64,000 bases of DNA from an uncultured archaeon (GCA_964534625.1 CAZHRF010000003.1:65486-129485); one strand, 5' to 3'; numbered from the stretch's first letter, positions 70 through 61,660 are shown. Numbers and translations are program-made. Notes: generated from the sequence alone by a model not told the origin.

Positions 70-3511
<3,442 letters not shown>

Positions 3512-3563: not shown

Positions 3564-4007
3564 ATGAGCGTAATGTCAAATATTATCCCTAATCTCACCC
3601 AAAATAAGTCAAATGAGTCAGAAAAAACCATCTTTCAAAAAATGACACAAGAGGAAGAGAAAAAGAGAGAGAAAGCAAGGAGATTGTTATTAAAAGAAGA
3701 GATTGACTTAACGATTAAAAAATTATGGCGATTAATACCAGGATTATCAAATAATTTTCAGCAGATTAGAATTGAATCCTACAAATTGATTGACCAGGGA
3801 ATAATTCCAGATAGACCAAAACATGATGCTGCGCTAATAATGGTTATTGCTTTGTTTAAATATCATCTACCATTTGAACCATTGAAACAAGTAGCATTGT
3901 GTCTATTAAGAACAGACACTATAAATGATCTACAAACATTAAACACACAAATTTTAGAGTATGAAAAAGATATAGAGAACATTGTACCATTCCAATATAG
4001 GATTTAA
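3564..4007 (+). CDS. Hypothetical protein (147 aa, K/E-rich N-terminus)
   Basis: Intact ORF between hypF and the SRP RNA gene, followed by a T8 run at 4051-4058. I recognise no motif. Confidence 0.45.
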   Translation: MSVMSNIIPNLTQNKSNESEKTIFQKMTQEEEKKREKARRLLLKEEIDLTIKKLWRLIPGLSNNFQQIRIESYKLIDQGIIPDRPKHDAALIMVIALFKYHLPFEPLKQVALCLLRTDTINDLQTLNTQILEYEKDIENIVPFQYRI

Positions 4008-4065
4008 ACAATGTTTATTACATCTTAAGCTTATATTAGACCTGTTTGGGTTTTTTTTCAATAAG

Positions 4066-4403
4066 CCTCCGACTGAAATCGCCCATAGAACCTGTAGTTC
4101 GACCTCACGTCAGAAGCCGTTTCCACCTTATCAGCTCCACACCGATTATTACGTGCATCACACATCGTTCTTAGGGGTGCTTACTTCCGTACCTAACCCA
4201 TTTTGAACTAAACCTTTCTAATGCTCCCCTCCGGGAACACCTCTGGTTTGCGCAATCTCGTAAGTCGATGCTTCAACGCGTACTAAGGAAGGCGTATCTT
4301 TCCTCAGTAAGGCCTCGGCAACAGTATTCGTCCCAGCATATAGAGCGTTTCTGGTTATAGGGTAGCCCTAACACCCCGACTAGTTTTCTACCGATTTCAG
4401 TTG
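4066..4403 (-). ncRNA. Signal recognition particle RNA (archaeal 7S/SRP RNA)
   Basis: GC-rich (about 50%) island in AT-rich DNA.
- Helix-8-like motif on the minus strand: GGUAC-GGAA-GUAAGCACC (4176-4193), a GGAA tetraloop followed by AGCA, close to the E. coli 4.5S sequence GGUCCGGAAGGAAGCAGCC.
- Helix-6-like CCC-GGAG-GGG (4226-4235), the same GGAG tetraloop as human helix 6.
- GCUGAU follows helix 8.
- The 5' and 3' ends pair: 4392-4401 is the reverse complement of 4072-4081.
- A TTATAA TATA-like box lies about 25 nt upstream on the minus strand (4423-4428).
Ends are approximate. Confidence 0.75.
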
Positions 4404-4522: not shown

Positions 4523-5083
4523 ATGTGTTCAAGAGTGATAGAAGATTTTACTCCGGAATTCAACAGTCTATTTGATGAATTCTTGTCTGGTGTAACTTCT
4601 TTAGCAATTTTGGGGATCGGTAATGAAATGAATGGCGATGATGCGGCTGGTCTTCATGTTATTTCAACTCTAAAACAATTCCAGTTACCCTCATGGATCA
4701 CTCTTTTTTATTGTGAAAAAGCCCCCGAACATTTTCTCGGTAAACTCTATACTCAAAAACCCAACAGAGTTATTGTTATTGATGCTGCCAATTTATCTGG
4801 TCCACCTGGTGCCATAGGTATCATTCCTACTGCTCTTATTTCCAAACAACTAAATTTTTCTACTCACACTTTATCTTTAACTTTGTTAGCTGATTTTTTA
4901 AAACCCGTTACTGATGATTTTGATATCATGTTTATTGGTATTAAACCAAAATTAATGCTATTCGAAACACCGCTTTCCTTTGAAGTAAAGGAAGCAGTAG
5001 GGGAACTTGCACAATTCTTATTTACCAAGCTTACAAATACAACTCATACTCACAAAATCAATTCTAGTAGGCAGACTACATGA
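4523..5083 (+). CDS. hycI: Hydrogenase maturation endopeptidase (HycI/HyaD family)
   Basis: The GIGNEMNGDDAAG motif (GxGNxxxxDDxxG) is typical of the [NiFe] large-subunit C-terminal protease. Its stop overlaps the hypD start (ATGA at 5080). Confidence 0.8.
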   Translation: MCSRVIEDFTPEFNSLFDEFLSGVTSLAILGIGNEMNGDDAAGLHVISTLKQFQLPSWITLFYCEKAPEHFLGKLYTQKPNRVIVIDAANLSGPPGAIGIIPTALISKQLNFSTHTLSLTLLADFLKPVTDDFDIMFIGIKPKLMLFETPLSFEVKEAVGELAQFLFTKLTNTTHTHKINSSRQTT

Positions 5084-6189
5084 TAAGTGATAAAAATTTC
5101 CGAGATAAAAAGTTAGTCCAAAAAATACTTTTACAGTTACAAGCTGAAGCAAAGAAATTAGACAATCCTATCAAGATAATGCATGTTTGTGGTACTCATG
5201 AACATGAGGTTTCGCGCTGGGGTATTAGAAGTCTTCTTCCCAATAACATTTCTCTCATTGCGGGACCGGGTTGTCCAGTCTGTGTTTGTTCAGCTAAAGA
5301 TATTGATGAAGTTTTATGGATTGCCAAGACCCATAATGTCACTATTTGTACGTTTGGGGATATGATGCGCGTTCCTTCTTCTTCCGATTCACTTTATCAG
5401 GCACAGAGTAAAGGCATTAATGTTAAAGTTGTATACAGTATAAGTGATGCAATTAAACTTGCTAAAAAAAATCCCAATACGGACTATCTTTTTTTTAGTG
5501 TCGGATTTGAGACCACCGCTTGTACTACCGCCCTTGAAGTATTTAGGACAAAACTCCCCAATTTCTCCATCTATTCTTCTCACAAATTAATTCCTCCTGC
5601 AATGGAGCTCTTGTTACAACGAGATGATATAGATTTTGATGGATATCTGGCACCAGGTCACGTTTCTACTATAATAGGTAGTACACCATATCAGATTTGT
5701 ACAGAAAAATATAACTTCCCAGTTTCGATTGCAGGTTTTGAACCTGTTGATATACTAAAAGGCATGTTTTCACTCACCAAACAGATTGTTAAAGGAGAGG
5801 CACGCGTTTCTAATGACTATAGAAGATATGTAAAAGACGAAGGAAACGTTGCGGCCTTGAGTCTTATGGAAAGGGTTTTTACGATTTCTAATGCGAGATG
5901 GCGCGGATTGGGAGTACTAGATAAAACAGGTTATGAAATTCATGAATCTTATTCTAGTATAGATGCTAAAAGCAAGTATAAGATCCCCGATCTACCCTTC
6001 AATGATTTACGTGGTTCTTGTATCTGTGACCAAGTTTTAATTGGAAAGAGTAAACCCAATTCTTGCAAATATTTCATGAAATCATGCACTCCTGAAAATC
6101 CCATAGGTGCTTGCATGGTCTCTCATGAAGGTACTTGTAACATTGCAGCTGCGTATGAAGATATATTTTCAAAGGATCTTAACCCATAA
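5080..6189 (+). CDS. hypD: Hydrogenase maturation protein HypD
   Basis: MHVCGTHEH, GPGCPVCV, GFETT and the C-terminal Cys cluster (CxxxxxxC...C) are HypD signature motifs. Confidence 0.9.
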   Translation: MISDKNFRDKKLVQKILLQLQAEAKKLDNPIKIMHVCGTHEHEVSRWGIRSLLPNNISLIAGPGCPVCVCSAKDIDEVLWIAKTHNVTICTFGDMMRVPSSSDSLYQAQSKGINVKVVYSISDAIKLAKKNPNTDYLFFSVGFETTACTTALEVFRTKLPNFSIYSSHKLIPPAMELLLQRDDIDFDGYLAPGHVSTIIGSTPYQICTEKYNFPVSIAGFEPVDILKGMFSLTKQIVKGEARVSNDYRRYVKDEGNVAALSLMERVFTISNARWRGLGVLDKTGYEIHESYSSIDAKSKYKIPDLPFNDLRGSCICDQVLIGKSKPNSCKYFMKSCTPENPIGACMVSHEGTCNIAAAYEDIFSKDLNP

Positions 6190-6245: not shown

Positions 6246-6488
6246 ATGTGTTTAGCAATACCTGCCAAAATCTGTGAATTTTTGGAAGAAAATCGTGTCA
6301 TGGTAGACATATCTGGTGTAAAAAGAGAAGCTGATACCTCACTTATCTCCGAAGATTTAGCTATTGGTGATTATCTCTTGCTTCATACAGGTTTTGCTAT
6401 TGCAAAGTTAGATCACCAACAGGCACAAGATAGTCTTAAAGTATGGGATCAAATTGCAGAGTTAACACTAGAGTCCGATATTCAATAA
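6246..6488 (+). CDS. hypC: Hydrogenase maturation protein HypC
   Basis: 80 aa beginning MCLAIPAKI (the essential Cys2 motif MCxxxP), immediately after hypD. Confidence 0.85.
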   Translation: MCLAIPAKICEFLEENRVMVDISGVKREADTSLISEDLAIGDYLLLHTGFAIAKLDHQQAQDSLKVWDQIAELTLESDIQ

Positions 6489-6566
6489 TTTCCCGTATAA
6501 CTTTACCTAACATAGATAATTTCGGTAAAGTTATATAGTTAGAAATTATCTAACATATGATTAACA

Positions 6567-7250
6567 ATGACTTTCAATAATGAAGATTCCAATGCACAAA
6601 TATTAAGACTCATTATTGATTTTTCTATAAAATCAAATCAGTTTTTGACTACTCATTTGTTAAAAGTTCTACCTGATGTCTTAGAACAAGAGAACTGCTC
6701 TTTGGATAACAATGAGATAAAACCGTTGGATGCCCTTTCTATGCTTAAAACTGAAAAAAAAGCACTCAATAACATAGATATAGCTTATATGATTATCCTT
6801 ACCTGTCGTGGATACAAATTTAAGAAGGGGATGGCAGATACAATATTTCTTTGTGAAAAAGACGCCATAAATCCTGATTTTACAGATTTAGCTAATGATA
6901 GACCACAGTTATCACAAGAGTTCGAAATTAAAACAATAATATTAAAATCTATTCTCGAATCGTATAATAAAGATAATCAAACCTTAATTACTAATATACG
7001 TAGATCACTCCCCATATTTATTGAACGGGCAGAAGGAGTATCATATTCAGGAAGAAAATTAACAATAAATCAATGGATAAAGGAAAAGGAGAGTAATGGG
7101 GAATGGATAGGAACTGAAGTTTTGCGCAGCAATAGCCTTAACATTATCACATGGGCAATTGGCAATCTGATTATACTACAAACGAGAGGATACTATTTAC
7201 AAGAAGTTCCTGCATTAAAGGAAAATGAATACATATTCATTAAGGCATGA
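6567..7250 (+). CDS. Hypothetical protein (227 aa) between hypC and the hydrogenase structural genes
   Basis: Intact ORF with no recognisable motif. Its position suggests a hydrogenase-associated role, but that is inference only. Confidence 0.45.
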   Translation: MTFNNEDSNAQILRLIIDFSIKSNQFLTTHLLKVLPDVLEQENCSLDNNEIKPLDALSMLKTEKKALNNIDIAYMIILTCRGYKFKKGMADTIFLCEKDAINPDFTDLANDRPQLSQEFEIKTIILKSILESYNKDNQTLITNIRRSLPIFIERAEGVSYSGRKLTINQWIKEKESNGEWIGTEVLRSNSLNIITWAIGNLIILQTRGYYLQEVPALKENEYIFIKA

Positions 7251-7422: not shown

Positions 7423-7932
7423 ATGTGTGAAAATTGTAAAGAGCTTAACAAAATTTTGAATACTCAACTTCCAGATAAGCTCATTGATAAAATTTCTAAG
7501 GTTGAAAGAAACCATTTTGACATAGAGACGACTCCTGATAAAGCTTATAATCTAATGAAGTTCCTTCATGAAGAAGTTGGCATTTACTTTTTAAGTACAG
7601 TTTCAGGTTTCGAGGAGAAAGATCACTTAAGTGCTTGTTATCATGTTATGCACAGAAATGAACAAGATGAAACTGAAATTCCCATCAATTTTTATGTTTT
7701 AGGTATAGACAAGGAAAAACCTATAACGCCCTCAATGTGTGATTTTTTTATCAGTGCTGATTATTACGAGCGCGAGATTCATGATTTTTTTGGTATAGTC
7801 TTTGAGGGTCATCCCTATTTAGAACGAATAATTCTTCCTGAGGATTGGCCTTCAGATATTTATCCATTACGTAAAGAATATTCTTGGCAAGAATTAAAAG
7901 AGAAAGCAGAGGAGATAGTTAGAAATGAATAA
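7423..7932 (+). CDS. Group-4 [NiFe] hydrogenase subunit, NuoC/30-kDa-like
   Basis: YYEREIHDFFGIVFEGHP matches the NuoC/HycE-N/MbhK signature (ERExxDxFGxxFxGHP). It overlaps the next gene by 8 nt. Confidence 0.8.
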   Translation: MCENCKELNKILNTQLPDKLIDKISKVERNHFDIETTPDKAYNLMKFLHEEVGIYFLSTVSGFEEKDHLSACYHVMHRNEQDETEIPINFYVLGIDKEKPITPSMCDFFISADYYEREIHDFFGIVFEGHPYLERIILPEDWPSDIYPLRKEYSWQELKEKAEEIVRNE

Positions 7933-9184
7933 AGAATTTCGCTCAAAATTTCGAATGGATCCTTATGGAAAAGGGGATGAACCCGAGGGGAGCGACTATA
8001 AGATTTTTGTTGGTCCTCAACATCCTTGGGCTGAAGAAGCTTGCAGATTTATCATACATTTAAAAGGTGAGGTTGTATCAGAAGCAGATATACGTATTGG
8101 CTTCAGTTTTAGAGGTATTGAAAAAGCAATGGAAAATAGAACATGGGTGCAAAACATCATGTTAGTTCCTCGTGCTTGTGGTATCTGTGGCGCCGTACAT
8201 CAAACTGTCTATGTACATGTCATTGAGGCTCTTGCGGGCGTAACCGAAAAAATATCCGATAGAGCGCGCTATATAAGAATGATATCTCTAGAAGCTGAAC
8301 GCATTCATAGTCATATGTTATGGTATGGCATATTAGCTCATGATGCGGGTTTCGATACTCTATTCCACATCGCTTGGAGAGATAGAGAAATAATAATGGA
8401 TATTATGGAAGACATAGGCGGGAATAGAGTCCATTATAGTCTTTCTTTACCTGGTGGTACTAGAAGAGATATAGATGCTACAAAAATTAAAAGAAATCTA
8501 GAAAAATTAAAAGAATTAGAGAAACAGGTATTATATCATAAGCGCGTATATGAGGAAGAAGCGACACTAAGAGATCGTATCGCCGGTTTAGGTAGATTGT
8601 CAAAAAAAGATGCAGAATTATTGAATTGCGTTGGTCCCAATGCCAGAGGGTCGGGTGTTCCTTATGATGTAAGAAAAGCATATCCCTATGAACTTTATGA
8701 TAAAATAGATTGGAAACCGGTTTATTATACGGGGGGAGAACCTTATGACGTGGGTTTAACACGACTAGATGAAGTTTTAGAGTCTATCAATATTATGAGA
8801 CAATGTTTTGATGCTTTAGAAACAGAGCATGGTGAAACGCTCATAAAAGTCAGCAATAGACTGCCAGAGGGGCGACACATATCTAGAGCTGAAGCTCCAA
8901 GAGGTGAAGACATACATTTTGGCATAGCAAATGGAACAGACACACTTGATAGATATAAAATAAGATCACCTTCTTTAGCTAATATAGATGCTACACTAAA
9001 GAGATTAGATGGAGAATATATAGCAGATGTACCTGTAATTTTAAGAACATATGATCCTTGTTTCTCTTGTACAAATAGGATCCTTTTAATAAAGGAAGAT
9101 ACTAATGAGAAGATGCTTCTAACTCAAGATGAATTTGCTAGAAAAGCGACAATGGCAAAGAAGTATAACAGGAGATTTTTCTAA
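7925..9184 (+). CDS. [NiFe] hydrogenase large subunit, group 4 (NuoD-like)
   Basis: N-terminal Ni-binding motif RACGICGAVH and C-terminal DPCFSCTNR match the group-4 L1/L2 patterns. A 33-aa extension follows the CxxC-xx-R site, as in substrates of HycI-type proteases. Confidence 0.9.
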   Translation: MNKEFRSKFRMDPYGKGDEPEGSDYKIFVGPQHPWAEEACRFIIHLKGEVVSEADIRIGFSFRGIEKAMENRTWVQNIMLVPRACGICGAVHQTVYVHVIEALAGVTEKISDRARYIRMISLEAERIHSHMLWYGILAHDAGFDTLFHIAWRDREIIMDIMEDIGGNRVHYSLSLPGGTRRDIDATKIKRNLEKLKELEKQVLYHKRVYEEEATLRDRIAGLGRLSKKDAELLNCVGPNARGSGVPYDVRKAYPYELYDKIDWKPVYYTGGEPYDVGLTRLDEVLESINIMRQCFDALETEHGETLIKVSNRLPEGRHISRAEAPRGEDIHFGIANGTDTLDRYKIRSPSLANIDATLKRLDGEYIADVPVILRTYDPCFSCTNRILLIKEDTNEKMLLTQDEFARKATMAKKYNRRFF

Positions 9185-9187
9185 CAG

Positions 9188-9691
9188 GTGGAAAAGATGG
9201 AAAAAAAACAAAAGAGACCTAAAAAGAAACTATTAACAATGGGAGCAGAAGCAATTAAAAATCAAGCTTTGGGCCCCGTAACAATGCATGTACTAGAAAG
9301 AATAGAAAAACATCCACCACCAGAAGATATCCGCGGATTACCCAAAATAATTGAAGATCGGTGTATCTTATGTGCCACTTGTGTTCGGGTTTGTCCAACA
9401 CATTGTCTAGAAATAGAGAAGGCAAAAGGAAGAGAAGGAAAAGACAATGGAATGATATGGATCCTTCGTCCGCAATGTATGGTGTGTGGAAATTGCCAAA
9501 CATATTGTCCAACAGATGCAATTATAGTAAATGGGGGAGAATGGTTAAGTGCAACATTTGATTTACACCATGATTATGAGATTTTAGTGGCAAAAGGTAC
9601 CTACAAAGAAAAGGTAAAAGAAAAAATGGAACAATTACGAAAACAAGGCGATGAAGTTGAAAAAGGGAGAAAGGCATTTAGAGGAGAATAA
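9188..9691 (+). CDS. 2x[4Fe-4S] ferredoxin-like hydrogenase subunit (NuoI/MbhN-like)
   Basis: Two CxxCxxCxxxCP motifs (CILCATCVRVCP and CMVCGNCQTYCP). GTG start at 9188, or ATG at 9197. Confidence 0.8.
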   Translation: MEKMEKKQKRPKKKLLTMGAEAIKNQALGPVTMHVLERIEKHPPPEDIRGLPKIIEDRCILCATCVRVCPTHCLEIEKAKGREGKDNGMIWILRPQCMVCGNCQTYCPTDAIIVNGGEWLSATFDLHHDYEILVAKGTYKEKVKEKMEQLRKQGDEVEKGRKAFRGE

Positions 9692-9703
9692 GGAGGAAAA
9701 AAA

Positions 9704-10225
9704 TTGAAACTTGCAGAAAAAATAGCCTGGAAAGCGAGATTAAAATCTCCATGGATAATACATTTCAACTCAGGAGGCTGTAATGGTTGCGATATCGAAA
9801 TAGTAGATATGCTAACACCAAGGCATGATATCGAACAATATGGAATGTTACTAAAAGGAACACCAAGACAAGCTGACATATTGGTGTGCACAGGTCCAGT
9901 AACAGTACAGGTGGCAAAAAGATTAAAGAGAATATATGAGCAAATGCCAGAACCAAAGTTTGTAGTGGCAATAGGAAATTGTGCAACGACAGGAGGAGTA
10001 TTCCAAGAATGCCCATTTGTTATGGGAGGTATAGATAAAATATTACCTGTTTCAGCTTGGGTATATGGATGTCCCCCCCGTCCAGAAGCTATGATCGCCG
10101 CGATTGCAAAATTGTTGGCTAAAGCCGAAGAAGATATGCTAGGGATTAAGGAGAACAGTAAGGAAAACGATAATAGAAATGTTACCGAACCCAAAAATAT
10201 TCATGAACACAAAAAACAAGAATAA
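9704..10225 (+). CDS. [NiFe] hydrogenase small subunit, group 4 (NuoB-like)
   Basis: GGCNGCD, CTGPV, GNCATTGG and GCPPRPE supply the NuoB-type four-Cys cluster ligands. TTG start preceded by AGGAGG. Confidence 0.85.
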   Translation: MKLAEKIAWKARLKSPWIIHFNSGGCNGCDIEIVDMLTPRHDIEQYGMLLKGTPRQADILVCTGPVTVQVAKRLKRIYEQMPEPKFVVAIGNCATTGGVFQECPFVMGGIDKILPVSAWVYGCPPRPEAMIAAIAKLLAKAEEDMLGIKENSKENDNRNVTEPKNIHEHKKQE

Positions 10226-10239
10226 TTTTTCTTCTTTGT

Positions 10240-11190
10240 CTATTTTATACTTTCCAGTCTCTCTTTCAACCAACAAGCCTTACAAAGGTTTCCTGCTGTT
10301 GCTTCACCACATTTATGACAGTCTTTTAATTGTTTTTTTGATTTTATGTTCTGTAGTAGAGGTAATAACTTATCATAGCCAGCTAGTATGTTAAATGCTA
10401 TCATTGGTTGCTCGTTTTGTGCTTTAAACATGAACTCTCTTATCACCCCTCTATATGCTTCAACAGCATATGGACAAGGAATTTCTTGATAGTCTAAATC
10501 ATTTAAGTAACAGTACATTACTATTTCTGCTTGTGGCACCATTCTAAAAGGTTTAGCCCGAGGTACTAAACTTTCATGTATCTTTCGAGGAGTTGGATTT
10601 AATCTAGCTAACCTCATTATATCGCCTCTAGTGATATTCAGTAATATTGTCTCTGCTTCATCTTCTAAATTATGTCCTGTTGCTACCACATCTACTTTCT
10701 CTTCTCTTGCTGCTTGATTCAACAACTTTCTTCTCAGTATCCCACAATAGCTGCATGCACCGTATTTCCTTTGTTCTCCGCGTTCTCCCAATTGTTCAAT
10801 TAAAGCATCCAAACTATATCCAAAATCCTGTTTAAAGGATAAAATCTGATGTTCAATATCAAGTTGTTGTACATGTTTTCTGGCATAGAATAATCCTTCA
10901 TCTCTATAACCCTCGATTCCTTCATCAATTGTTATTGCCATTAATTCGGATTTTGGGAAATCTTCTTCTATTTTTTTTAAAACGTGTAATAAAGCGATAC
11001 TATCTTTTCCGCCTGATATACCCACCCCAATCCTATCTTTTCTTCCAAAGAGCTTGTACTTCGATATAGTCTTTTTTACTCTGCGTTCTAATTGTTCATT
11101 AAAATGATGATGACATAAAGGAGATTTATCATAAGGACGAACATACACAACTTCATCTGTTCCACAAAACATACATTTCATATTAATCAC
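10240..11190 (-). CDS. PP-loop tRNA 2-thiolation enzyme (TtuA/NcsA/Ctu1 family)
   Basis: SGGKDS PP-loop, N-terminal CxxC...CHHH and C-terminal CHKC...CKAC zinc fingers, and GHNLEDE. This is typical of TtuA/NcsA-type sulfurtransferases. Confidence 0.75.
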   Translation of the reverse strand: MINMKCMFCGTDEVVYVRPYDKSPLCHHHFNEQLERRVKKTISKYKLFGRKDRIGVGISGGKDSIALLHVLKKIEEDFPKSELMAITIDEGIEGYRDEGLFYARKHVQQLDIEHQILSFKQDFGYSLDALIEQLGERGEQRKYGACSYCGILRRKLLNQAAREEKVDVVATGHNLEDEAETILLNITRGDIMRLARLNPTPRKIHESLVPRAKPFRMVPQAEIVMYCYLNDLDYQEIPCPYAVEAYRGVIREFMFKAQNEQPMIAFNILAGYDKLLPLLQNIKSKKQLKDCHKCGEATAGNLCKACWLKERLESIK

Positions 11191-12377
11191 AGTAAAAGCA
11201 TAGAAAGCAAAATGTTTGACACTATTAATGCCAGACTACAAATTCTGATTATACGCATTAATTTTTTTATCTCGTTTTCTTTTTTACCTCTGTTTTCTAA
11301 ATAAGACTCTAGTATTTTATCTCCATCTGTAATCTTTAAGGGTAACATATTCATGAATACAGCTATTACTCCAATGTTTATTGTGTATAATACTTCTGTC
11401 TTCCAATAATAAGGTATAAATGGGTTCAGAGATCCTTTTGGTGGAAAATAATTCGTAATACTAATCCCTAGATAATATGAATCGGTCTCTTGCTCTGTTA
11501 TTGGATTATTTCTTGTTGGTATAAGAGAGATATTTTTCTCATCCAAAAATAAAATAATTATTAATTGGTTTTCTGTTAAATTCGAGATATAATTAAGATA
11601 GTCATTAGTTCCATTTAGGCGCGTGTATTCAATACCATTATCATTATCTTTTATACTGCCAAAATGGGTGATTACATCTCCTTTGACAATTCCAGCTTCA
11701 TCTGCAGGTGTATCTTCATATATTTTTGTTACAAGTACTCCACTTGTTTCCTTGTAACCTATTTGATTAAATACTGGCGTTAAAAGTAATAAGATTAAGA
11801 AAACAAGTGCGATCACTGCATTAATAATTGAGCCATTTAACAAAATTTTTAATTTTGATTTAAAAGAAGCTTTTTTCATTCTTTCTTCTACAAGTTCAAC
11901 AAATCCCCCAAAAAGGACACCAAATAAGAAAATACCAGCTGATTCGATTCCCACCCCTTCTCTAACGGCCATTACTGCGTGCCCTATCTCATGAGAAACC
12001 AAAATCAGTACTATTGGGACTACCAGCAATAGCATTTGCTCCCAACTTACTGTAACACCAGGAATGATAACTTGTATTCCCGTAGCTGCTATTGAACCAA
12101 ATACTAACAAAAATGGATTAACGACAAATAACACCAATAATAGAACACATATCAATCCTACTGGTACAATACCTATTCTAAAAACAAAAGTCCATAATTT
12201 TTTTCCTTTTTCTCCTAGTTTTGCTAGCATTTTATTAAAACGCTTTATTCGAAATAAAAACCCTAGTGGGGTAATATATACACCATATTTGTCTAATCTC
12301 AATTTATTTCCTAATAAAGATAACATAGTCATTACTATGAAATACCCTAGGACCACAATTAGTACCGTAATATCCAT
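11187..12377 (-). CDS. Site-2 protease family (M50) membrane metalloprotease with a PDZ-like insert
   Basis: HEIGH zinc motif inside a TM helix, multiple TM segments, and a central soluble segment (VTKIYEDTPADEAGIVKGDVI) resembling PDZ. It overlaps the downstream gene by 4 nt. Confidence 0.75.
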   Translation of the reverse strand: MDITVLIVVLGYFIVMTMLSLLGNKLRLDKYGVYITPLGFLFRIKRFNKMLAKLGEKGKKLWTFVFRIGIVPVGLICVLLLVLFVVNPFLLVFGSIAATGIQVIIPGVTVSWEQMLLLVVPIVLILVSHEIGHAVMAVREGVGIESAGIFLFGVLFGGFVELVEERMKKASFKSKLKILLNGSIINAVIALVFLILLLLTPVFNQIGYKETSGVLVTKIYEDTPADEAGIVKGDVITHFGSIKDNDNGIEYTRLNGTNDYLNYISNLTENQLIIILFLDEKNISLIPTRNNPITEQETDSYYLGISITNYFPPKGSLNPFIPYYWKTEVLYTINIGVIAVFMNMLPLKITDGDKILESYLENRGKKENEIKKLMRIIRICSLALIVSNILLSMLLL

Positions 12378-12533
12378 TTTTTCTCCTTGTATTGCTTTAT
12401 CTTATACCCTTTAATAATTATTGTTTTGTCTGGTTTTGTGCTCATCTTTATTCGTTGTACATCATTTTAATTAAGCTTCTATCTAGTAATTAATGCAATT
12501 ATTTTTATGTAACGTCTATTGATACCCACATAG

Positions 12534-13646
12534 ATGGGGCAGCTAATAAAATGGTATGGAGATAAAACAACGGGTAAACCTCCAAAAGGATGCGAGTTAT
12601 GTGCTTTAGGTGCTAAATTGGTTATATTTATTACGGGAGTCTGTCCAAACAGGTGCTATTACTGTTCTATCTCAAAAGAAAGAAGATATAAGATTACCTT
12701 TGCTAATGAACAGCCTATTACAGATATTTCTGAAGCAATTACTGAAGCGGAAAAGATATCAGCTCTTGGAGCAGGAATTACTGGTGGAGAACCCACTCTT
12801 GAAATCAACAAAATTTTGCAATATATTACTGCTTTCAAATTACATTTTGGATCAGAGTTTCACTTTCATCTTTATACTTCGGTTCCATTAAATCATGATG
12901 AATTATTCTCTTTACATAAAGCAGGTCTTGATGAAATACGATTCCATCCCCCAAGATTAGATTTAACTCAAAAAATGAAAAACACGATATTCCATGCAAA
13001 CCATCTAAATTGGGATTTGGGCTTTGAAATCCCAGTAATCCCAAATTTACCCCATAAAGTAGAAACAATAATACACTTTGCCATCAATAATAATATTGAT
13101 TTTATAAATTTTAATGAATTTGAATTTACTCAAACGAATTATCACGAATTAAAAAAAAGGGGATTTAAACCTAAAAACAGCTTTACTGCTGCTGTTCAAG
13201 GAAGTGAAGAAATTGCGCTCGGACTACTTAAAAAATATGAAGAAGAAAACATCATCTTGCATTACTGTTCTTCCAGTTTTAAAGATGGAGTACAATTAAC
13301 TAATCGATTTCTACGACGGGCAAAGAATACAGCCAGACAGTTTGATGAGATAACACCAGAAGGACTACTTAATCGAGGTAGAATAACAACTACCAATAAA
13401 CAATCACTCCATGAGATAGCTCAATTTATTAAAGAGCAACTAGAAGTTCCTGAAGAATTAATAGAAATACAGAACGAAGTAAATACAATTCTTACCCATT
13501 GTTCAATAGTAAAAGAGATTGGCCAAGAATTAACAGAAATATTTCCAGATATTACTCGAGTAGATATAATCGAACAATATCCGTATCCAAACGGTTTTGT
13601 TACTTATAGTGACCCGATTTATGAAAAAGAAGAAAAATCCACTTAA
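12534..13646 (+). CDS. Radical SAM protein (PFL-activase-related, COG2108-like)
   Basis: CPNRCYYC is the CxxxCxxC radical-SAM cluster motif. GGEPTL follows downstream. Confidence 0.75.
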   Translation: MGQLIKWYGDKTTGKPPKGCELCALGAKLVIFITGVCPNRCYYCSISKERRYKITFANEQPITDISEAITEAEKISALGAGITGGEPTLEINKILQYITAFKLHFGSEFHFHLYTSVPLNHDELFSLHKAGLDEIRFHPPRLDLTQKMKNTIFHANHLNWDLGFEIPVIPNLPHKVETIIHFAINNNIDFINFNEFEFTQTNYHELKKRGFKPKNSFTAAVQGSEEIALGLLKKYEEENIILHYCSSSFKDGVQLTNRFLRRAKNTARQFDEITPEGLLNRGRITTTNKQSLHEIAQFIKEQLEVPEELIEIQNEVNTILTHCSIVKEIGQELTEIFPDITRVDIIEQYPYPNGFVTYSDPIYEKEEKST

Positions 13647-14785
13647 ATTGTTGGTAAGGGGAACCTTAACAAAGCCGCTACTCCTCCTAGTTCAGATAAT
13701 TTTTCACCTGTTTCATGCATTATCGACATAAAAACGGTTTTTCCTCCTTTTTGTTTAGTCTCTTCCACTAATTCATCAATTAATGCTCGTTTTTCAACAT
13801 CCAAAACTTGTAACATATCATCAGAGATCATTAAAGTCTCCACAGCTCCCATTTCTATTGCCCTTCTCACACTATCTAAACCATAAGTAGCGTTGTCTGT
13901 TTCTTTTCCTATTCTTCTATAAAATTCTTCCAATAACTGAGTTTCAAAGACCACTCTTTGTTTTTTTGCTATTTTTTCAGGTAATTTCCTTGATAAAACC
14001 TCATGCAAGCCTACTTTTCCTCCCGTATGTGCATGGACATGTTGTATTTTTTCTAGTAAACTTGGATCCCGTTTTTTTACAAAATCGAGGAATTCTTCTG
14101 CAGTAAAACCCGGACCAGCTATAATAATAACCTCGGGTTCATATTGATCTGTGGTGTCTTTAATAATTTGATGTAACTCTTTAAAGAAATTACCTTTTGT
14201 TGTTGAATGTTGCTTTGCATCACTAAACTTACGAGTTATAGCTGAAGAAACTTCAGTAATAATTTTCACTTGAAAAGGAGTAACCAATGCTATACAAGCA
14301 GTACCCTCATCTAAGGTAATAATTAATATTTGGGAACGCATGGAATCTTCTTTAGCCTCTTCTATTATCTGTCTTTCTGAAGATTTCCATTCGTTTTTTG
14401 TCAATCTTGCTTTTTCCATAGTTGAAAGGGCAATTGTGTGATAACTACCTAAAGATATAAGATCCTCGTTTCCTGCAACAATAATTCCCTTGACACGTAA
14501 AGTATCACCAAAACCACCAAAAGCGAATTCTTCAACTTCTATTTCTAACGTCATCTTTACCCGTTCACCAGTATCAGCACGACCGAACTCATCATTTCTT
14601 CTAATTCTTCTGCTAGTTTCAGCCCTAAGAAGATCACTTGGTTTTAGAATTCGATATATAGCATAAAGATCACCCGAAGTTTCGGGAATAAATTCTATAA
14701 TTCCATGATTATAATCTAAAGTTAAAATTTTCAAAGTAATTTCACTACTATTATAATAAAAAAGATACAAATAAAAAACTTTCAT
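13643..14785 (-). CDS. pelA: mRNA surveillance protein Pelota (Dom34 homologue)
   Basis: LKILTLDYNHGIIEFIPETSGDLYAIYRIL and the eRF1-like central and C-terminal domains. The true start is probably the TTG at 14734 (LKILTLD), so the ORF's first 17 codons look like a spurious 5' extension. Confidence 0.85.
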   Translation of the reverse strand: MKVFYLYLFYYNSSEITLKILTLDYNHGIIEFIPETSGDLYAIYRILKPSDLLRAETSRRIRRNDEFGRADTGERVKMTLEIEVEEFAFGGFGDTLRVKGIIVAGNEDLISLGSYHTIALSTMEKARLTKNEWKSSERQIIEEAKEDSMRSQILIITLDEGTACIALVTPFQVKIITEVSSAITRKFSDAKQHSTTKGNFFKELHQIIKDTTDQYEPEVIIIAGPGFTAEEFLDFVKKRDPSLLEKIQHVHAHTGGKVGLHEVLSRKLPEKIAKKQRVVFETQLLEEFYRRIGKETDNATYGLDSVRRAIEMGAVETLMISDDMLQVLDVEKRALIDELVEETKQKGGKTVFMSIMHETGEKLSELGGVAALLRFPLPTI

Positions 14786-57600: not shown

Positions 57601-57710
57601 GGGGTGGTGATCTAGCTCGGCTATGATATCTCCTTGACGAAAATCATAGGTGCGACCTATAGTTTTCAGAATGGAGAAGGTCGCAAGTTCAAATCTTGCT
57701 CACCCCACCA
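57601..57710 (+). tRNA. tRNA-Val (anticodon GAC) with a 32-nt intron at 37/38, 3' CCA encoded
   Basis: Hand fold. Acceptor GGGGUGG/UCACCCC, anticodon stem UCUCC/GGAGA, loop UUGACG then an intron (about 57640-57671, containing the hairpin AUAGGU-GCG-ACCUAU), T arm GCAAG-UUCAAAU-CUUGC, discriminator A, then CCA. Confidence 0.85.
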
Positions 57711-61559: not shown

Positions 61560-61660
61560 TGGCGCCGCCCGCAGGACTTGAACCTGCGACCTTACGGTTT
61601 CTGCATACAATGAAAAATGGTTTTAACAGCCGTATGCTCTACCGACTAAGCTAGGGCGGC
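61560..61660 (-). tRNA. tRNA-Asn (anticodon GUU) with a 25-nt intron at 37/38, 3' CCA encoded
   Basis: Hand fold of the minus strand. Acceptor GCCGCCC/GGGCGGC, D arm GCUU-AGUCGGUA-GAGC, anticodon stem UACGG/CCGUA, loop CUGUUA then the intron, T arm GCAGG-UUCAAGU-CCUGC, discriminator G, then CCA. Confidence 0.85.

Follow-up and report, generated by a model that had tools for sequence, protein, structure and literature searches.

Where is the membrane half of a hydrogenase whose catalytic genes stand by themselves? The question is raised by a stretch of 64,000 nucleotides from an uncultured archaeon (GCA_964534625.1 CAZHRF010000003.1:65486-129485; the whole stretch is called the window below), in which positions 7423-10225 hold the four genes of the catalytic module of a group-4-type [NiFe] hydrogenase, with no gene for a membrane subunit among their neighbours. 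The preliminary description of this DNA implied a module without membrane partners, which would have been the first group-4 [NiFe] hydrogenase lacking a membrane anchor. We find instead that the four genes very probably encode the peripheral arm of a membrane-bound, energy-converting, Complex-I-like group-4 [NiFe] hydrogenase, and that its membrane arm has its genes on a different contig, C15, of the same genome. On this reading the locus is one half of a divided gene layout and no new kind of membrane-free enzyme.

Contig C3 (130,645 bp), to which the window belongs, is part of an archaeal metagenome-assembled genome (MAG) of 3.37 Mb in 120 contigs, with 89.8% completeness and 2.6% estimated contamination. 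The host is a Heimdallarchaeaceae archaeon. The nearest public large subunits, 63-69% identical, are those of Candidatus Heimdallarchaeaceae, followed at 45-48% by a tier from other Heimdallarchaeia, Hodarchaeales, Bathyarchaeota and Nitrososphaerota. A gene for eRF1, an archaeal marker, lies downstream of the module in the window. For comparison we used 31 Heimdallarchaeaceae genomes as a family survey, 83 Heimdallarchaeia genomes as a wider one, and an independent sample, SRR31660269, whose assembly carries relatives of both the C3 and the C15 loci.

The four plus-strand genes are tightly packed, overlapping or spaced by 3-12 bp, in the order C-D-I-B. The NuoC-like subunit (7423-7932; PF00329 Complex1_30kDa, 1e-27) is the sole NuoC homologue in the genome. 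It is followed by the NuoD-like, group 4 [NiFe] large subunit (7925-9184; PF00346 Complex1_49kDa, 7.6e-54; PF00374 NiFeSe_Hases, 4e-10) and by a NuoI-like 2x[4Fe-4S] subunit (9188-9691), recognized by Fer4 family matches and by two CxxCxxCxxxCP ferredoxin motifs, CILCATCVRVCP and CMVCGNCQTYCP; it reaches 53.7 bits with the TIGR01971 NuoI model, under the cut-off of that model, and is presumed to be the site of ferredoxin docking and electron entry. The last gene (9704-10225; PF01058 Oxidored_q6, 1.6e-30) encodes a NuoB-like small subunit, which scores 151.5 bits with NF005012 NuoB, over the cut-off, and is by tblastn the only NuoB in the genome. Its cysteine ligands, in GGCNGC, GNCATTGG and GCPP, number four and account for a single proximal [4Fe-4S] cluster.

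The large subunit carries the metal-binding motifs L1 (RACGICGAVH) and L2 (DPCFSCTNR) with all four cysteine ligands kept, and both motifs are conserved in all 21 members of its clade. L2 occupies residues 377-385 (window ~9053-9079) and reads DPCFSCTNR in each of the 21 Heimdallarchaeaceae large subunits. The motifs were compared with group-4 L1 and L2 definitions that we take to be those of HydDB, rather than with the models of that database. An L1 of the form CxxC...H and an L2 of the form DPCxxCxxR, in the company of a single-cluster NuoB-like subunit and of NuoC-like and NuoI-like subunits, are features of group 4. The Pfam matches and the two motifs bear out the subunit identities proposed in the preliminary description, and with them its reading of the module as the peripheral arm of an Mbh/Ech/FHL-type enzyme. 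Group-3 models score far below NuoD models on this protein (75.6 bits for frhA, 292.8 bits for PRK06075), which sets it apart from the soluble group 3 [NiFe]-hydrogenases, and retention of the four cysteines, together with the hyp genes that flank the operon, sets it apart from respiratory Complex I, NDH-1 and Fpo. When the window proteins were used as tblastn queries against the genome (MAG ~90% complete), no second NuoB or NuoC appeared, and the other large-subunit-like matches were 23% identical, one of them falling in a group-3b-type operon on contig C54.

That membrane genes are missing locally, as had been claimed, proved correct. By hydropathy scan, none of the cluster proteins has a predicted transmembrane (TM) segment; searches with PF00146 (NuoH) and PF00361 (antiporter-like) found no NuoH or antiporter-like gene on the entire 130-kb contig C3; and tblastn with all the membrane proteins of C15 and of the complete genome of a relative, G004, returned only noise from the window (E > 0.1), with no remnant of a membrane gene. 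The layout is not an assembly artefact, because a contig in the SRR31660269 assembly, whose large subunit is 93% identical, repeats the order hycI-hypD-hypC-orf227-nuoCDIB and has the same convergent neighbour downstream.

Searching the whole genome gave a different answer. PF00146 has exactly one match, on contig C15, and PF00361 has one clear match, also on C15, besides a weak one on contig C6 (24.8 bits). The C6 match was rejected as a second antiporter-like gene, Pfam being blank for its 631-residue open reading frame (ORF) and for the neighbour of that ORF. The C15 matches belong to a stand-alone operon, nuoH-orf126-nuoJ-nuoK-nuoN (C15:36080-39987, minus strand), encoding a NuoH of 345 residues, the NuoA-like product of orf126 with three TM helices predicted by hydropathy scan, a NuoJ of 182 residues, a NuoK of 137 residues and a NuoN/MbhH-type subunit of 506 residues (locus L004:8081-9601, minus strand). 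Its neighbours are a P-type ATPase gene, divergent from it, and a gene for a membrane protein, convergent with it; no NuoB, NuoC, NuoD or NuoI gene lies beside it. A profile search of the PDB gave no match identifying the orf126 product as NuoA; we read it as a divergent NuoA because its counterpart by alignment is the gene that opens the outgroup operons described below, and because PF00507, the NuoA family, is matched by two of the five aligned proteins (best E, 3.4e-7). The link to NuoA thus runs only through these outgroup homologues.

The peripheral and membrane operons are at least ~75 kb apart even if contigs C3 and C15 abut. With one NuoH locus and one NuoB/C/D set in the genome, each arm has solely the other as a possible partner. 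Characterized group-4 enzymes are usually encoded by a single operon, and here there are two, on different contigs; the one-operon layout is a habit of gene organization, however, and not a biochemical criterion for group 4. Cognate NuoH-like and antiporter-like subunits are present in the genome, unlinked.

The relatives put this arrangement in context. A clear orthologue of the large subunit is found in 29 of the 31 family genomes (61-67% identical), and the same type of NuoH in 30, mostly 48-55% identical over the full length, two being fragments at contig ends. Both arms are present in 29 of the 31, always as separate operons, the large-subunit gene and nuoH never being adjacent: 13 genomes have them on one contig, 6.0-20.8 kb apart, and the other 16 on different contigs. 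The implied module without membrane partners is therefore refuted by the presence of nuoH-nuoA-like-nuoJ-nuoK-nuoN in the same genome and by the co-conservation of the two arms across 29 of the 31 family genomes, and an orphan module is equally at odds with the synteny, which places the membrane operon within those 6.0-20.8 kb of the peripheral one. In the complete genome G004 the order is hypE-hypF-nuoH-nuoA-like-nuoJ-nuoK-nuoL-like (597 residues)-nuoN-orf264-hycI, converging on nuoB-nuoI-nuoD-nuoC, so that the membrane operon sits between hypF and hycI, within one hyp-hydrogenase supercluster. Another relative, G027, has hypD-hypC-orf227-nuoC-D-I-B and then, after ~20 kb, hypE-hypF-nuoH-A-J-K-L-N.

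Outside the family the genes are together. Two outgroups, P0027 (Heimdallarchaeota) and P0036 (Hodarchaeales), whose large subunits are 45-46% identical, carry all the genes together, in the order usual for Complex I: A-like, B, C, D, H, I, J1, J2, K, L, N in one operon. In a tally counted by hand from two tables covering the 83 Heimdallarchaeia genomes, nuoH lies directly 3' of the large-subunit gene (gaps of ~50-220 bp) at about 27 of the 30 loci that belong to other lineages, and at none of the 29 that belong to the family. A tree of large subunits places the Heimdallarchaeaceae with those of Heimdallarchaeota and Hodarchaeales in a clade of 52 rows (SH-aLRT 100), the 21-member family clade arising from a stem that is long, at 1.07 changes per site, inside the contiguous-operon clade. 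One ancestral operon has been split into two arm-specific operons across the whole family Heimdallarchaeaceae: the operons are separate throughout the family and single in other Heimdallarchaeia. Divergence among the membrane subunits parallels that among the peripheral subunits: identities of NuoH and NuoD are 49-50% and 63-66% with family orthologues, 35% and 45-46% with the outgroup hydrogenase operons, and 28% and 29% with a Complex-I-like paralogue in G004.

Although absent from this genome, additional NuoD paralogues, one or two per genome and 370-375 residues long, occur in several members of the family; they lack the [NiFe] cysteines. Those of G004 end in CPADVDR or CPADLDR, without CxxC (loci L011 and L012); one is part of a complete Complex-I-like operon that includes four antiporter-like genes, and the other belongs to a B-C-D-I cluster with no NuoH match within the 14-kb region examined.

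In the genus to which the window belongs, the rearrangement has gone a step further: the membrane operon has been moved away from the hydrogenase cluster, unlinking the arms. The hypE of the window is 68% identical to the hypE that stands ahead of nuoH in G004 and G027. In relatives nuoH begins about 200 bp after hypF; in this genome hypF is followed by a gene called orf147 and a signal recognition particle (SRP) RNA gene, and it is these that fill the slot between hypF and hycI which the membrane operon occupies in relatives.

What kind of enzyme do the two operons encode? Appler et al. 2024 (bioRxiv 10.1101/2024.07.04.601786) described Complex-I-like group 4 hydrogenases in Heimdallarchaeia, Heimdallarchaeaceae included, under subgroups 4j, 4m, 4p and 4q; these have a NuoBCDI peripheral arm, no NuoEFG and a shortened membrane arm, and a ferredoxin-to-H2 chemistry is predicted for them. 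The models of complexes in that study were built from ORFs directly next to one another, and neither "operon" nor "synteny" appears as a word in its text. Judged by its sequence, the enzyme of the window is of this Heimdallarchaeial Complex-I-like kind, an assignment at the level of class and without a subgroup letter. The two share NuoB, C, D and I without NuoEFG, a NuoD that keeps the [NiFe] ligands, a membrane arm of NuoH, A, J and K with fewer antiporter-like subunits than Complex I, and predicted ferredoxin-driven H2 production. They differ in that the Heimdallarchaeaceae, rather than having one nuo-like cluster, keep the peripheral genes in one operon, C-D-I-B, and the membrane genes in another, H-A-J-K-L-N; in this genus, moreover, the two are unlinked and the L-type subunit is missing, orf227 precedes nuoC, and L2 reads DPCFSCTNR.

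Among solved structures the best match is Pyrococcus furiosus Mbh (PDB 6CFW, group 4d), at 233 bits for the large subunit with MbhL (6cfw_L) and 137 bits for the antiporter-like subunit with MbhH. Mbh is ferredoxin-dependent, H2-evolving and ion-translocating, as is predicted for the window enzyme; it is, however, encoded by a 14-gene single operon that includes small Mrp-type subunits, whereas the window enzyme has a NuoA/J/K membrane arm encoded apart. The features of a 4d enzyme, MbhA-G and the order mbhJKLMN, are replaced here by the order C-D-I-B, whose difference from Mbh had been pointed out correctly, and by NuoA, NuoJ and NuoK genes, although no genome-wide search for small Mrp subunits was made. 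The second-best solved match, at 187 bits, is HycE of E. coli formate hydrogenlyase (FHL; PDB 7Z0S, group 4a), which shares with the window enzyme a C-terminal extension after DPCxxCxxR and a HycI-type endopeptidase. Unlike FHL, the window enzyme has no formate dehydrogenase partner, its NuoC and NuoD are unfused, and its membrane subunits are different and lie at a separate locus. The 11-subunit NDH-1 of cyanobacteria and plastids likewise lacks NuoEFG and takes in ferredoxin electrons at NdhI, but it reduces plastoquinone, and its NdhH has no [NiFe] cysteines, whereas the window enzyme keeps them along with a full Hyp set. The genes for NDH-1 lie at several separate loci, which shows that Complex I relatives can be assembled from unlinked operons.

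Gene content, metal motifs and the single copy of each arm are established directly, as are the orthologues and their gene order in relatives and the fission throughout the family. They point, with a confidence that we would call high, to a nine-subunit, ferredoxin-oxidizing, H2-evolving, ion-translocating hydrogenase as the most likely product of the two operons. Reduced ferredoxin would give its electrons to the NuoI-like 2x[4Fe-4S] subunit, from which they would pass through the single NuoB-like cluster to the [NiFe] site of the NuoD-like large subunit, where protons would be reduced to H2; the free energy would be relayed via NuoH, NuoA, NuoJ and NuoK to one NuoN-type antiporter-like subunit, which would move ions across the membrane. 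That the arms assemble, that ferredoxin is the donor, that catalysis runs towards H2 and that ions are pumped are all proposed by analogy with Mbh, FHL, Ech, Complex I and the enzymes of Appler et al. 2024.

Several observations weigh against this picture. L2 ends in NR, the usual ending being D/E-R: an Asn takes the place before the final Arg that is held by Asp or Glu in the listed matches outside the clade, and is a Heimdallarchaeaceae signature. The NuoL-like subunit has been lost in this genus, leaving one antiporter-like subunit in place of the two that relatives have; nuoK abuts nuoN on C15, the L-type protein of G004 matches only NuoN in the genome, and a contig of SRR31660269, 92% identical, has the same nuoJ-nuoK-nuoN junction. 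The subunit that remains is itself altered. With residue positions taken from an alignment to MbhH and from the residues that we presume to be the conserved ones, the canonical Glu of TM5 and Lys of TM7, TM8 and TM12 are all present in the L-type subunit that relatives have; the N-type subunit is without the TM7 Lys throughout the Heimdallarchaeial hydrogenase clade, and NuoN of this genome has in addition K->R in TM12 and DAT for DAH. Given these changes, whether NuoN is competent to pump is uncertain. The upstream regions of nuoC and nuoH, AT-rich spacers both, share no word of 10 bases or more that could mark a common promoter or operator. A second copy of either arm may lie in the missing 10% of the MAG, which is ~90% complete, and the physical joining of the two arms is something that we infer.

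A bolder form of the proposal is a minimal nine-subunit enzyme with a single, partly degenerate antiporter-like subunit, whose soluble arm might be produced, matured and perhaps pooled in the cytoplasm separately from the membrane arm, with orf227 as a dedicated chaperone or regulator that arose when the operon split. We consider it unlikely.

Could the NuoCDIB module be, after all, a stand-alone soluble group-4 hydrogenase, working as a cytoplasmic ferredoxin:H+ oxidoreductase, with the C15 operon otherwise used or a relic? Such an enzyme would suit the absence of any membrane gene within at least ~55 kb on C3 and of any predicted TM segment in the cluster proteins, the shrunken membrane arm, with its NuoL-like subunit lost and the K->R and H->T changes of NuoN, and the attachment of a lineage-specific soluble protein, orf227, to the peripheral operon. 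It leaves the C15 genes hard to account for, however: they are intact, 41-54% identical to family orthologues and 92% identical in SRR31660269; the role of NuoH is known solely as docking of NuoB and NuoD, and the genome offers it no other partner; and sister genera hold both operons within one hyp-hydrogenase supercluster. To our knowledge no soluble group-4 enzyme has been characterized. We judge this explanation improbable.

Less probable again is that the hydrogenase of this genus is nonfunctional, a decaying system on its way to loss after the unlinking of its arms and the loss of NuoL. The two NuoN changes specific to this genome, K->R and DAH->DAT, and the missing NuoL-like subunit are what decay might look like, and a soluble group-3b-type hydrogenase operon elsewhere in the genome could cover H2 metabolism. 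Yet hypABCDEF, hycI and all nine structural genes are full-length and without stops, every metal ligand is kept, and two independent members of the genus retain the genes at 92-93% protein identity and in the same order.

A binning error that joined C3 to a C15 from another organism, the true genome having no membrane arm, is very improbable indeed: a MAG of 120 contigs with a 2.6% contamination estimate leaves room for such an error, but the two contigs are indistinguishable in composition (GC content 32.5% and 32.3%; tetranucleotide r = 0.995), membrane subunits of Heimdallarchaeaceae are the nearest relatives of those on C15, at identities in step with those of the peripheral arm, SRR31660269 has close relatives of both contigs (93% and 92%), and 30 of the 31 family genomes bear the same NuoH type.

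The genes upstream of the peripheral operon supply most of its maturation apparatus. On the plus strand are hypE (73-1125; AIRS and AIRS_C domains), for synthesis of the cyanide ligand; the carbamoyltransferase gene hypF (1139-3511; Acylphosphatase, zf-HYPF, Sua5 and HypF_C domains); a gene for a HycI-type maturation endopeptidase (4523-5083; PF01750; TIGR00072 90.9 bits, above the cut-off; TIGR00142 hycI 93.3 bits); hypD (5080-6189; PF01924, 9e-138); and hypC (6246-6488; PF01455, 1e-22). Downstream and convergent with the module is a PP-loop tRNA thiolase-like gene (10240-11190). These flanks, with orf227 and the hyp genes on one side and the thiolase gene on the other, agree with those first described, according both to Pfam and to SRR31660269. 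Neither hypA nor hypB is within the 64-kb window, as had been said, and a check of the whole genome placed hypB and hypA together on contig C2. The large subunit has a C-terminal tail after the L2 Arg that is conserved across the clade; its pairing with the HycI-type protease holds good and cleavage is predicted, although the tail is of 34 residues and not the 33 first counted.

Two ORFs within the cluster had been left unassigned, and they turn out to have different relations to it: orf227 is linked to the operon, and orf147 is unrelated. The orf227 gene (6567-7250, plus strand) encodes a soluble protein and lies directly upstream of nuoC. It is present as a single copy in 30 of the 31 family genomes, directly upstream of nuoC in 23 and 6 kb upstream of it in one genus, and does not occur in the outgroup operons; among 1.84 billion protein clusters it has just three full-length representatives. 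It is thus restricted to the Heimdallarchaeaceae and genetically linked to the peripheral-arm operon. The protein has no match in Pfam or NCBIfam and no significant fold match in the PDB by Foldseek. Its AF2 (AlphaFold2) model is confident (pLDDT 86.6, pTM 0.87), and the order of secondary structures in the model suggests that it may consist of two winged-helix-like units; a repeated motif, RGYKF / RGWYLQE, falls at two helix-plus-hairpin units, and two cysteines, C44 and C96, are invariant. We regard it as a candidate for an assembly factor or a regulator. In the spacer between hypC and orf227 (window ~6496-6538) there is a perfect 12-bp inverted repeat, TATAACTTTACC...GGTAAAGTTATA, which could be a terminator hairpin or an operator.

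The other ORF, orf147 (3564-4007, plus strand), encodes a soluble, genus-specific protein and sits at the rearrangement breakpoint. It has no match in Pfam or NCBIfam, and its best matches elsewhere are at 22-33% identity to part of proteins of 260-330 residues; we rejected it as a hydrogenase component, since the hydrogenase clusters of relatives hold no orthologue. The apparently empty spacer between orf147 and hycI holds an archaeal SRP (7S) RNA gene, unrelated to the hydrogenase (4083-4393, minus strand; RF01857, full length 1-317, 101.3 bits against a gathering score of 96.5). As an ancestral element of the cluster it too was rejected, being absent from the hydrogenase clusters of relatives. 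A 74-residue ORF at 3982-4206 overlaps the SRP RNA gene and is taken to be spurious.

The group-3b-like soluble [NiFe] hydrogenase operon referred to above lies on contig C54 (~9700-14500; locus L022:3704-8512, minus strand) and encodes a Fer4_22 subunit, an FAD/NAD-binding subunit, a small subunit, a large subunit of 427 residues and a maturation protease of its own; from this operon we conclude that the organism has a second, cytoplasmic hydrogenase. Elsewhere in the window, Rfam tRNA matches at 57601-57707 (plus strand, 107 nt) and 61563-61660 (minus strand, 98 nt) were not called by ARAGORN and are probably intron-containing archaeal tRNA genes.

What is known of the enzyme class is unchanged by these findings. 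We found no earlier description of the split organization, of its further unlinking, of the loss of NuoL in this genus or of the linkage of orf227. For annotation they carry a warning: in Heimdallarchaeaceae, reading the neighbours of the catalytic genes alone misses half of the complex. For the family, they amount to a clean split of a Complex-I-family operon across Asgard archaea of one family, one arm going with hypEF and the other with hycI-hypDC, and so are relevant to the assembly and remodelling of Complex-I-like machines in the archaea most closely related to eukaryotes. Should the minimal nine-subunit form prove true, these closest archaeal relatives of eukaryotes would offer a natural model for modular assembly in the Complex I family, possibly with a part-time soluble activity.

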